A DNA stretch of 64,000 nt from Candidatus Methanomethylophilaceae archaeon (GTDB lineage Archaea; Thermoplasmatota; Thermoplasmata; Methanomassiliicoccales; Methanomethylophilaceae). Location: NCBI GenBank assembly GCA_944320495.1, contig CALUHR010000005.1, positions 96,001 through 160,000 on the forward strand. The letters run 5' to 3'. Below, piece after piece: positions 15,111 to 18,219 of the stretch; within the stretch, counting starts at the first letter, position 1; each line of letters starts with the position of its first letter. A program made the position numbers and the translations under genes. The notes beneath the pieces were generated by a model that saw nothing but the letters and a program-made list of their open reading frames with translations, had not been told where the DNA came from and ran no database searches.

Positions 15111-16141
15111 GAAACGATTCAGCAGGACGGAGGATAACGAGAATCGGTCTGACCGCCATAGTTCTGATTGCGGTCACACTGGTCTTCGTCCTGCTGGATC
15201 TTGCCTGGGCAGGAACCAGGATCCTCTCCCTCGGAGAGGTCTGGTCCGCCCTCATGGGCGATGGCACCTGGGCCAACGACATAATCGTCAACCATAGGAA
15301 CGCGCCCCGTATCATCGCGGCCATCGTCATAGGGGCCGGACTGGCCGTCACCGGTTGCGTCATGCAGGCGGTGTTCAGAAACCCCCTGGCCACACCATAC
15401 ATCCTTGGACTCTCATCCGGAGCATCCCTGGGATCGGCATTCGCCATCATGCTCGTGCCTGCATCGATGATGGCTCTCGCCCAGCCCGTACTCGCTTTCG
15501 CGATGTGCCTTCTGACCACGTTCCTCGTCTATACCGTCTCCCGCTCCGGAGGAACGATGGTCAGGACGGAGACGCTCGTCCTTGCCGGAGTGGCCATCTC
15601 ATCCCTGTTCTCAGCCGTGGTCTCGTTCCTCACCTATGTGGCCCCCAGCGACAAGATGCAGAACATCGTCTTCTGGACCATGGGCAGCCTCGGAGGAGTC
15701 GGATACGAGGAACTGACCGTCGTGCTTCCCATAGTAATCATCGGAATTGTTCTGATGCTGACCCAGTGCAGAAACCTCAACGCCATGATGATCGGCGACT
15801 CCCACGCGATGGACCTCGGGGTGGACGTCAGGAAGGTCAGGATCGCCCTCCTGATCGTCTCTTCCTTCGTGGTCGCTGCCTGCGTCGCGTTCGTCGGAAC
15901 GATCGGGTTCGTCGGTCTCGTCATCCCCCACATCCTGAGGATGGTGATGGGGCCCGACAACCGCCTCATCATGCCCATGAGCGTCATAGGCGGTGCCGCC
16001 TTCCTCCTGATCAGCGACTGGGTCGCGCACATCGTGGCCCCCTACTACGGAGTGCTTCCCATCGGAGTCGTGACAGCCCTGGTCGGAGGTCCCTTCTTCA
16101 TCTACCTCCTGTGCAGGAGGAAGAGGGAGGTGGGATGGTGA
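15107..16141 (+). CDS. FecCD/BtuC family ABC permease
   Basis: PRIIAAIVIGAGLAVTGCVMQAVFRNPLATPYILGLSSGA; IGFVGLVIPHILR. Confidence 0.92.
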   Translation: MRNDSAGRRITRIGLTAIVLIAVTLVFVLLDLAWAGTRILSLGEVWSALMGDGTWANDIIVNHRNAPRIIAAIVIGAGLAVTGCVMQAVFRNPLATPYILGLSSGASLGSAFAIMLVPASMMALAQPVLAFAMCLLTTFLVYTVSRSGGTMVRTETLVLAGVAISSLFSAVVSFLTYVAPSDKMQNIVFWTMGSLGGVGYEELTVVLPIVIIGIVLMLTQCRNLNAMMIGDSHAMDLGVDVRKVRIALLIVSSFVVAACVAFVGTIGFVGLVIPHILRMVMGPDNRLIMPMSVIGGAAFLLISDWVAHIVAPYYGVLPIGVVTALVGGPFFIYLLCRRKREVGW

Positions 16142-16929
16142 CGTCCCCGCTCGAGGTCCGCGAGCTCGGATACGACTATGACGGGAGGTCCATCCTCGAC
16201 TCCGTCACATGGGACCTCCGCAAGGGGGAGATCCTCGGCGTCCTGGGCCCCAACGGATGCGGCAAGACCACTATGCTGAGGAACCTCAACAGGAACCTCT
16301 CGCCCAAACGCGGATGCGTCGTCCTCGCCGGCACCGACCTGGAGGACATGGCCAAGAGGGACATAGCCAGGCACATCGCCGCCGTTCCCCAGAGCAACGA
16401 GATCCGCTTCGCCTTCACCGTCCGCGAGATGGTCGCCATGGGCAGGATGCCCTTCCAGGAGGCCTTCCGCGGGAACTCCTCCGAGGACGAGCGCATAATC
16501 GACGAGGCCATGGAGCTCACCGGCATCACCCACATGTCCGACCGCCTGATCAACACCATGAGCGGCGGAGAGCGTCAGCGCGTGATCATCGCACGCGCGC
16601 TGACACAGCAGCCGGAGATCCTCCTGATGGATGAGCCGACACTACATCTTGACATCAACATGCAGTTCGAGGTCCTCGACCTGGTGTCCAAACTCTCCAG
16701 GGACAGGGGGCTCACCGTCGTCATCGTGTCCCACGACCTGCCGATGGTCGCCCGCTACTGCGACAGGATCATCCTCATCCACGACAGGACCGTCTGGGCC
16801 GAGGGGAAACCCGAGGACGTCCTCACGCCGGAGAACATGCGCACGGTGTTCAACATCGACGCTAGGTTCGAGCTGGATGACAGGGGCCAGAGGACCGTGA
16901 GGCTCTACGGCGCCTGCCCCAGGGAATGA
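16135..16929 (+). CDS. ABC transporter ATP-binding protein (FepC/BtuD-like)
   Basis: GPNGCGKTT, MSGGERQRV, LMDEPT, SHD motifs. Confidence 0.92.
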   Translation: MVTSPLEVRELGYDYDGRSILDSVTWDLRKGEILGVLGPNGCGKTTMLRNLNRNLSPKRGCVVLAGTDLEDMAKRDIARHIAAVPQSNEIRFAFTVREMVAMGRMPFQEAFRGNSSEDERIIDEAMELTGITHMSDRLINTMSGGERQRVIIARALTQQPEILLMDEPTLHLDINMQFEVLDLVSKLSRDRGLTVVIVSHDLPMVARYCDRIILIHDRTVWAEGKPEDVLTPENMRTVFNIDARFELDDRGQRTVRLYGACPRE

Positions 16930-16985
16930 CTATCGGTTCGTAGGATGACTCGATCGAGTTCTGCCCTCGTCGAGAACTTGCTGAA

Positions 16986-17206
16986 AGGCGGGAAGTCCGA
17001 GTGCACCGGCTTCTCAACTCTCGGTGCACCCGGAACCGTCCCGGCAGGAGGTGATACGACCCTAGTGATCATCGCTGAAATCCGGAACTCTGGTTCCTAG
17101 TGACGATCGTCACCGGCGGCGGTGTGATCGTCATTGACATTCCGTAAGGAATGCCGAGGTCTGATCCGCCTCAAGGATCCGGCTCCTTCGGGAGCCGTTA
17201 CCTCCT
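16986..17206 (+). ncRNA. Structured RNA module copy 1 (type I toxin mRNA-like, frameshifted mini-ORF)
   Basis: Homologous to the inverted copy at 17473-17699, with compensatory changes in four stems; AGGAGGT at 17046 and ACCTCCT at 17200. Confidence 0.55.
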
Positions 17207-17472
17207 TGGTTCTAGTAATGGACGCGTGCGATATAACAATCTGCCGACAGAGTAACCGCCGGAATACGATTCCCGGATGCCTTGAATCTTCAGAATGCTG
17301 CGCGACCACAGTCCGTTCCGACGAATGAGGACGTCATGGATGCTGCTGTCCAAGAGCTTGAGACCCTACGACACTCTACTCTCGAGGATCGGAATCGATT
17401 ATGTTTAAGGTCCTAGATCATAATTCTTATCGAAGAGCAAGTGTTAATTAGACCCATGCCAATCTCATATCC

Positions 17473-17699
17473 AGGAGGTTGACGGTCCCCGAAGGGACCG
17501 GATGCCTTCAGGGCATCACTCTTCGCCATCCATCAATGGATGACGATGGTGATCCTGACCCTGGGGGTCCTGACCACCACACGAAGCACGCCCCGACGGC
17601 GCTCGATACGGATCTTCAGGATCCTACCAACCTCCTACCGGGACGGTTCCGTGCATGCTGAGAAGGTGAGATGTCACGGCATGCACGGACTTCCCGCCT
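17473..17699 (-). ncRNA. Structured RNA module copy 2 (type I toxin mRNA-like, intact 29-codon mini-ORF 17533-17622)
   Basis: Same layout as copy 1; strong TATA box at 17730-17737 about 25-30 nt upstream. Confidence 0.55.
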
Positions 17700-17729
17700 A
17701 CCAGCGATTCTAGGCCAGTTGTGTATATG

Positions 17730-17737
17730 TTATATAT
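17730..17737 (-). promoter_or_regulatory. TATA box candidate for module copy 2
   Basis: ATATATAA on the minus strand within an AT-rich tract, at archaeal spacing from the module 5' end. Confidence 0.5.
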
Positions 17738-17871
17738 TTATCGAATAGACATCTTTTATCATAACAGAATTCTACTCGATCGATCTGAAACAGCGTCAAT
17801 CCACCGCCCCGAACCGCCGATCGCTGGTTGTTGGGGAACCTACTTATCGAAGCCCGCCTACTCCCGCGCAT

Positions 17872-18219
17872 ATGCGCTGGATGCTCCGCTCCAAGATCCA
17901 CAGGGCCACCGTCACCGAGACCCGCGTCGACTACGAAGGCAGCATAACCGTCGACGAGGACCTCCTGGAACGCTCCGGGATCTGGGTCGGCGAGAAGGTG
18001 ACCGTCGCCGACGTGAACAACGGCAACCGCTTCGAGACCTACACCCTCCCGGGGAGGAGGGGCAGCGGGGTCATCGCGGTGAACGGCGCCGCCGCGCACC
18101 TCTGTGACGAGGGCGACCTCGTCATCATAATGGCGTACGAGCTCGTGGACGAGCCCATCCATGCCAAGGTGCTCCTCGTCGACGGCGACAACAGGGTCTC
18201 CAGGGAGCTGTTGTATTGA
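17872..18219 (+). CDS. panD: Aspartate 1-decarboxylase (pyruvoyl-dependent)
   Basis: [12 protein letters not shown]...YEGSIT self-cleavage motif, [15 protein letters not shown]. Confidence 0.95.

Follow-up and report, generated by a model that had tools for sequence, protein, structure and literature searches.

The 940-nt gap between an ABC ATPase gene and panD in this 64,000-nt stretch of archaeal DNA (the window) holds two diverged, inverted copies of one element, and sequence comparison indicates that both belong to a covarying structured-RNA family of Methanomassiliicoccales with modules of ~235 nt. Each module appears to be a folded mRNA for a mini-protein, its Shine-Dalgarno (SD) site locked by its own tail, with a BRE/TATA-type antisense promoter past that tail making a cis-antisense RNA; we put the probability of this reading at about 0.55. 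The sequence-only reading that preceded this analysis had described two convergent modules at the site. They are real, with 78% column identity between the copies: ~16975-17217 is the left module, read from the plus strand, and ~17710-17463 is its minus-strand counterpart on the right, with 260 nt of spacer between the two. The features of the locus are as follows.

16141-16929, ABC-transporter ATPase gene (FepC/BtuD-type, PF00005), the left neighbour, with its stop codon at 16927-16929.
16975-17217, plus strand, left module (nhmmer E=1.9e-59, alignment A2).
17046-17053, plus strand, left SD region, AGGAGGTG, read from the sequence, in columns that are nearly invariant in A2.
17079-17147, plus strand, remnant of the left mini-ORF (..LVTIVTGGGVIVIDIP), with the stop TAA at 17145-17147.
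17180-17197, plus strand, left terminal hairpin CGGCTCC-TTCG-GGAGCCG, with a UUCG tetraloop on the sense strand.
17198-17209, plus strand, left anti-SD tail, TTACCTCCTTGG, which pairs with the SD and whose complement had been read as an AGGAGG start.
17230-17246, minus strand, left antisense promoter candidate, a BRE-like CGGCAG followed by the TATA-like GTTATATC.
17443-17450, plus strand, right antisense promoter candidate, GTTAATTA, an octamer with 7/8 A/T.
17471-17482, minus strand, right anti-SD tail, TCAACCTCCTGG, from RNAduplex with its own SD.
17483-17500, minus strand, right terminal hairpin CGGTCCC-TTCG-GGGACCG, both arms compensatorily changed relative to the left copy.
17533-17619, minus strand, right mini-ORF (LKIRIERRRGVLRVVVRTPRVRITIVIH), with the stop TGA.
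17631-17636, minus strand, right SD site AGGAGG, from the sequence and A2.
17463-17710, minus strand, right module (nhmmer E=1.1e-53, A2).
17729-17743, minus strand, right sense promoter, CGATAAATATATAAC (BRE and TATA), 13.4 bits with the family promoter matrix.
17872-18219, panD (PF02261), the right neighbour.

The family is patchily distributed. Among 101 genomes sampled from the same taxonomic family, BLAST matches came from 21, up to 7 of them in one genome, and included tandem arrays of modules with a 375-nt period; the host genome (1.77 Mb, 61.6% GC) has only the two copies described here. A profile search of all fetched loci, which are designated by L numbers below, yielded 36 distinct full-length modules, and further loci come from MAGs labelled Methanomethylophilaceae, Methanomassiliicoccaceae, Methanomassiliicoccales and Thermoplasmata. 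Scanning a genome collection with GGRACCNNCCCGGYAGGAGG, a permissive pattern, returned at least 120 matches, mostly chance hits in high-GC bacteria, with ~10 extra archaeal loci among the matches listed. Searches of Rfam at gathering and permissive thresholds found no family at the locus, where all surrounding matches have E>1, and the only match above the gathering score across the window is a tRNA. Searches of the literature turned up neither a description of these RNAs nor start-site data from Methanomassiliicoccales. The patchy multi-copy distribution, with tandem arrays and decayed copies, is that of type I toxin-antitoxin loci.

Several observations on the loci themselves can be added. 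Two of the contigs that carry full modules are binned as bacterial, one as 'Prevotella hominis' (L083) and one, with two modules, as 'Lachnospiraceae bacterium' (L046); L083 is near-identical to the archaeal locus L031, and both contigs are most likely mis-binned archaeal DNA. A second module subfamily (L040, L048, L022, L023, L020 and L030) has a different ORF body (e.g. MRRPSGVFRIRVVILLGNITIVLDLEIP) with the same RNA ends and the same downstream AT box as the first. In four loci a small conserved gene, 66-88 aa as called, is located 118-138 nt 5' of the module on the same strand (L006:1861-2073(-), L008:1053-1316(+), L013:1872-2069(-) and L024:1866-2069(-)). Its product has the core ..KKSLTVSLPxELIEYLxxKVxxRDFASMAHGVELxxLRYKQAEERGE and looks ribbon-helix-helix-like from its strand-helix-helix sequence pattern, with no match in Pfam or PADLOC; it could be a regulator of the module. 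An ABC ATPase gene (PF00005) adjoins the module in at least five lineages (the window, L022, L040, L046 and L048), running into it in the window and in L040 and converging on it in L022 and L048 with 56-81 nt between, and the module may thus be linked to operons for metal-chelate or cobalamin transporters, at their 3' ends.

Comparison of 31 modules gives a consensus fold of 32 pairs, in which 92.1% of the cells are paired versus 79.6% in shuffles. The covariation score is 0.439 (vs 0.202), a value reached by none of 500 shuffles, and slid controls do not exceed 0.115. The terminal hairpin, helix 7 of the fold, is 97.7% paired with compensatory CG/UA changes. Because G-U pairs are frequent and UUCG/GNRA tetraloops lie on the sense strand, that strand is the folded one. 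Apart from the left copy of the window, 33 of 35 modules carry a BRE/TATA-like element with the consensus CGATAG-n-TTTAT at a fixed place, ~24 nt before a conserved 5' GCCG, and the sense promoter of the right module stands at this same place. The AT-rich tract around the latter (17724-17764) also has TATA-like boxes on the plus strand, ~110-140 nt 5' of panD, and may be a divergent promoter region shared by the right module and panD.

The second structural element of the family is a lock on the SD. The 3' tail pairs with the SD and the nucleotides that follow it, and both strands of this helix co-evolve, as in the combinations GTGGAA/TCCATC, GTGCGT/CGCAC and GTGGTA/CCTAC. Cognate SD:tail duplexes have a mean energy of -14.9 kcal/mol, compared with -13.1 kcal/mol for non-cognate ones (permutation p=2e-4). 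In the window, RNAduplex gives -13.8 to -15.3 kcal/mol for the left tail with its SD and -17.2 kcal/mol for the right tail with its own SD, the latter ranking 3 of 24 against other tails. The structured mRNA with SD sequestration that is looked for in a type I system is found here in the covarying helices and the cognate-specific SD:tail pairing.

The mRNA seems to be coding. Behind CCCGGYAGGAGGTG, which hardly varies, comes a short ORF; its stop codon is placed in a hairpin loop and alternates between TAA, TAG and TGA at one column; in the left copy the TAA sits in the loop of the hairpin at 17138-17153. The peptides align nearly without gaps as IxxIxIExRxxGFRxxIxTxxVxIVIDIP, and of the single-nucleotide codon differences in the sense frame 713 are synonymous and 880 non-synonymous, where the antisense register has 297 and 1296. 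By this substitution pattern the sense ORF looks like a coding frame. AlphaFold2 predicts a three-stranded beta-sheet (pLDDT 88.3), for which Foldseek returned only generic beta-meander matches in the PDB (E >0.7), and neither Pfam nor PADLOC has a match for the mini-protein. A scan of 1.84 billion representative proteins found the motif in 27 clusters, 26 of them small proteins (28-93 aa) in which it is always C-terminal, some being 28-29 aa long and beginning with ATG. The putative start codon varies, and many members show AUC or AGG at the expected position. Three members of the second subfamily (L040, L048 and L023) have ATG or TTG ~9 nt after GGAGGTG, and in the first subfamily (A) the usual start column reads GTG, ATG, CTG, GAG or AAG, so that about one third of its members, including the right copy, have no canonical start codon there. 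The predicted peptide of ~29 aa has the size of a type I toxin, and it is charged and beta-rich with no hydrophobic helix; on the modelled structure it is not a typical hydrophobic membrane toxin.

The two copies of the window are worn in different ways, and from their sequences both mini-ORFs look impaired. The left module begins 46 nt past the ABC ATPase stop codon and retains a 5' domain, the SD, the mini-ORF remnant, two 3' hairpins and the anti-SD tail, with a 1-nt deletion that puts the N-terminal half of the ORF out of frame. A sense promoter is missing: the best upstream score with the family matrix is 1.2 bits, and the region between 15738 and 17231 contains no AT-rich octamer. Lacking a promoter of its own, the left module could be transcribed only by read-through from the ABC operon. 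In the right mini-ORF none of ATG, GTG and TTG stands at the usual start column, and the peptide ends in ..VIH, where others end in ..DIP. The spacer between the modules also holds an ORF of 26 codons on the plus strand (17337-17416, MDAAVQELETLRHSTLEDRNRLCLRS), with GAGGA 4 nt 5' of it; no counterpart was seen in the other loci.

The sequence-only reading had further proposed that back-to-back TATA-like boxes between the modules fire antisense RNAs into each of them, starting at AGGAGG strings, and its measurements are exact. The minus-strand TTATAT at 17236-17231 (ATATAA at 17231-17236 on the plus strand) lies 24 nt from the AGGAGG at 17206-17201 (CCTCCT at 17201-17206), the plus-strand TTAATTA at 17444-17450 lies 22 nt from the AGGAGG at 17473-17478, and the left and right spacers between box and AGGAGG show no sequence relation, as claimed. 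Both AGGAGG strings are the complements of the module-terminal pyrimidine tails (..ACCTCCTTGG and ..AACCTCCTGG). Judged from the host genome alone, this geometry is weak evidence and near chance level: an octamer with at least 7/8 A/T occurs in 27% of ORF-free 24-nt windows, and the chance of two such boxes at the right place is ~0.07. The intergenic region contains three more AT clusters.

It is only through the homologues that the signal becomes significant. Such an octamer is present 24-48 nt past the terminal hairpin in 27 of 32 modules, compared with 7/32, 10/32 and 6/32 in the bins at 0-24, 48-72 and 72-96 nt; the 32 are non-redundant and have unrelated flanks, but the modules are related and the counts are not fully independent. 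The proposal had been staked on the AT-rich boxes being conserved in homologous loci, and there they are kept. Between the hairpin and the start of the box are 34.5 +/- 4.8 nt, and the position of the box is held across at least six genera of Methanomassiliicoccales with differing spacer sequences; the right box of the window, 31 nt past its hairpin, falls within the conserved window of the family. Measured to the end of the CCTCC-like tail, the distance is 22-25 nt in individual loci, the same spacing that separates the modules' own TATA from the first conserved nucleotides. The archaeal TATA box is centred near -26. Since the spacing equals the archaeal TATA-to-start distance, the predicted start falls on the complement of the anti-SD, at ~17206-17209 on the minus strand for the left candidate and ~17472-17474 on the plus strand for the right one.

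The resemblance of the box to a promoter, and the direction in which it points, were assessed with a 14-nt matrix learned from the modules' own sense promoters, which themselves score 8.72 bits. Over 28 non-redundant modules the box region scores 6.28 bits in the antisense and 4.77 bits in the sense orientation (one-sided Wilcoxon p=0.008), while control regions score 1.53 bits. The preference is modest, with the antisense orientation better in 17 of the 28 modules. The correlation of a de novo box motif with the promoter motif is higher for its reverse complement (r=0.59) than for the motif as it stands (0.41), and the box is nearly palindromic (G-TATWTAWA-C). The left box of the window, a TATA-like stretch that includes TTATAT behind a BRE-like element, scores 9.2 bits when taken with its flank (CGGCAGATTGTTAT, 17246->17233, minus strand), against only 3.2 bits in the sense orientation; scores of this kind occur at a genome-wide frequency of 5.5e-5 per position. 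The right box scores <2 bits, and as an antisense promoter candidate it is weak. The proposal that each module has an antisense promoter of its own is thus partly supported, by the conserved, antisense-favoured box position and by the left box, and is weaker at the right box.

The near-symmetry of the box leaves room for another direction of transcription, and it is possible, though unlikely, that the promoter is bidirectional or sense-directed and drives a downstream transcript, for example an RNA antisense to a convergent neighbour gene. Boxes such as GTATATATAC and GTATTTATAC are quasi-palindromic, about 10 modules read TATTTAT or TATTTAA in the sense direction, and 11 of the 28 score better in that orientation. 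The mean matrix scores nevertheless favour antisense, and such a transcript would have no consistent destination: the genes found downstream are on either strand and at varying distances, leaving no conserved gene for the box to serve in sense, no other conserved feature lies downstream at a fixed distance, and within tandem arrays the following module is served by a promoter of its own ~120 nt further on. The conserved spacing of 22-25 nt to the anti-SD would also go unexplained. Inverted repeats flank the AT box in L004, L006, L017 and L024, 30-50 nt after the module (GGATTG..CAATCC, CTGCATTC..GAATGCAG and GTTCA..TGAAC); their role may be that of an operator for the candidate antisense promoter or of a hairpin in the sense RNA.

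That the box has no promoter function and takes part in forming the 3' end of the sense RNA, or is a terminator shared by convergent genes, is improbable. Archaeal terminators are U-rich, and the box does lie just past the mRNA tail, with T3-T4 runs in some cases; most boxes, however, have no T run of four or more (for example GATATAAC, TATAAATA and TATATATA), and no hairpin-plus-T-run site was found in the region 16900-17900. In L012, L014 and L020 a separate T5 run is found between the tail and the box, preceded in L012 by a hairpin, which places the box beyond a plausible sense terminator and makes it unlikely to act as part of the sense RNA. The match of the box to the family BRE/TATA matrix, more than four bits above control DNA on average, also speaks for a promoter. 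A scan for sigma-70 promoters and intrinsic terminators, whose model is wrong for archaea, showed nothing relevant at the locus, and no conserved terminator or T run for the putative antisense RNA was found on the antisense strand.

To a similar degree improbable is the explanation that the boxes of the window are incidental AT-rich DNA and that the enrichment in the family reflects shared descent or a non-transcriptional site, such as an operator or the boundary of a duplicating unit. The 27% background of AT-rich octamers and the poor score of the right box are in its favour, as are, for an operator, the inverted repeats in four loci. Shared descent fits poorly with tail-box spacers that are unrelated between lineages around a box that keeps its position, the binomial expectation of 27/32 at p=0.27 is vanishingly small, and the left box scores 9.2 bits. 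Very improbable, finally, is a real antisense gene with AGGAGG as its RBS or as the 5' end of a near-leaderless mRNA, such as the 60-aa ORF at 17479-17661 (plus strand), which we reject on frame breaks and substitution pattern: no stop interrupts the frame anywhere in the module in L005, L006, L007 and L013, and a start codon directly follows AGGAGG in ~14 of 31 modules (TTG in the right copy), but the frame is broken or shifted in L004 (TAG), L009 and a second L008 copy, the codon after AGGAGG is GTA, ATA or another non-start codon in 17 of 31, the synonymous share in the antisense register is under random expectation, and the G-U pairs and tetraloops belong to the sense strand. An SD-plus-ATG on the antisense strand ~100 nt downstream (L006, L007, L008, L013 and L024) was likewise considered as a conserved partner ORF and set aside, the peptides being unrelated; in L007 it lies at the end of the convergent neighbour gene, and its ATG overlaps the stop codon of that gene.

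In the mechanism that we prefer, with an antisense promoter past the tail, the module would be a self-contained gene, a tightly folded mRNA whose product is a mini-protein of ~29 aa predicted to form a three-stranded beta-sheet and whose ribosome-binding site would be held shut by the 3' pyrimidine tail of the same RNA. A BRE/TATA-type promoter on the opposite strand, just past the tail, would start transcription on the complement of the anti-SD and give a cis-antisense RNA. Such an RNA would begin with a copy of the SD region and would match the mRNA by perfect complementarity in the tail, in the terminal hairpins and perhaps also in the ORF. With the modules convergent, as in the window, two antisense promoters would stand back to back in the spacer and fire outward. 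Comparison between homologues establishes the mRNA fold, the SD:tail helix, the coding frame and the fixed place of the box; its promoter function, its antisense direction and the repression of the mini-protein by the antisense RNA are our inference. As with 3'-overlapping type I pairs, repression would come about through decay of the duplexed mRNA or through a block to translation: a duplex at the 3' end could lead to decay or to refolding of the mRNA, as SR4 does on bsrG, and a long antisense RNA could block the ORF. Alternatively, antisense pairing with the anti-SD might free the SD, with activation rather than repression as the outcome. The left copy, which has lost its sense promoter and reading frame, keeps the strongest antisense box, and these losses would fit the decay pattern of toxin-antitoxin loci, although as a single case they are an anecdote.

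The wider claim is a tentative and rather doubtful one, that these modules are the first type I toxin-antitoxin-like family in Archaea, distributed across Methanomassiliicoccales as an order of gut and rumen methanogens, with a tail-locked mRNA, an antisense RNA starting exactly on the lock and a left copy that keeps its 'antitoxin' promoter, a term used by analogy. A 2025 paper gives Proteobacteria, Firmicutes and Tenericutes as the only phyla with known type I toxin-antitoxin systems (PMC12390103). A search of the literature found no archaeal type I system described, and descriptions of archaeal pairs of small-protein RNA and antisense RNA are only just beginning (10.1101/2025.10.28.685009). 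The module family would be a well-defined archaeal case with comparative support, combining an mRNA fold that covaries, a locked SD, a foldable protein of 29 aa and a positioned antisense promoter, in methanogens of the human and animal gut. The two start sites predicted here to a few nucleotides bear on whether archaeal cis-antisense control shares the logic of bacterial type I systems. Membership of the family in type I is not established, because the peptide is not a hydrophobic toxin and has no homology to described toxin or antitoxin families (Rfam, Pfam, PADLOC).

The modules share several features with the txpA/RatA, bsrG/SR4 and bsrE/SR5 pairs of Bacillus subtilis. They have a small ORF on a structured mRNA with a partly sequestered SD, and their loci are multi-copy, patchy and sometimes tandem or decayed. 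As in pairs of the txpA/RatA type, the candidate convergent promoter lies past the 3' end, and the cis-antisense RNA would overlap the 3' part of the mRNA. They differ from the B. subtilis pairs in their archaeal host with BRE/TATA promoters, in a peptide that is charged and predicted to form a beta-sheet where theirs is a hydrophobic helix, and in an antisense RNA that is putative, in a host for which RNase III is not known to be available. The AT box itself is like an archaeal BRE/TATA core promoter in having an AT-rich octamer after a short purine-containing element, 22-25 nt before the predicted start, and unlike the usual promoter of this kind in being quasi-symmetric, with a direction that is derived statistically.

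Other aspects recall hok/sok and the aapA1/IsoA1 system of Helicobacter, where likewise the 3' tail of the full-length mRNA pairs with the translation-initiation region, with which the tail of the modules co-evolves. The antisense RNAs of hok/sok and aapA1/IsoA1 are directed at the 5' region and act once the 3' end has been trimmed, whereas the candidate RNA of the module would start on the locking tail. Among archaea, the spRNA23/asRNA93 and spRNA24/asRNA94 pairs of Methanosarcina mazei consist of small-protein RNAs with cis-antisense RNAs and have been likened to Hok/Sok by their authors (10.1101/2025.10.28.685009). They belong to a different order and are known from expression data, whereas the module family is known from comparative structure and promoter evidence; by analogy they appear to be the nearest archaeal parallel. 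Taken with the bacterial systems, the module would resemble a 3'-overlapping type I toxin-antitoxin pair to which a 5'-3' lock like that of hok or aapA1 has been added.
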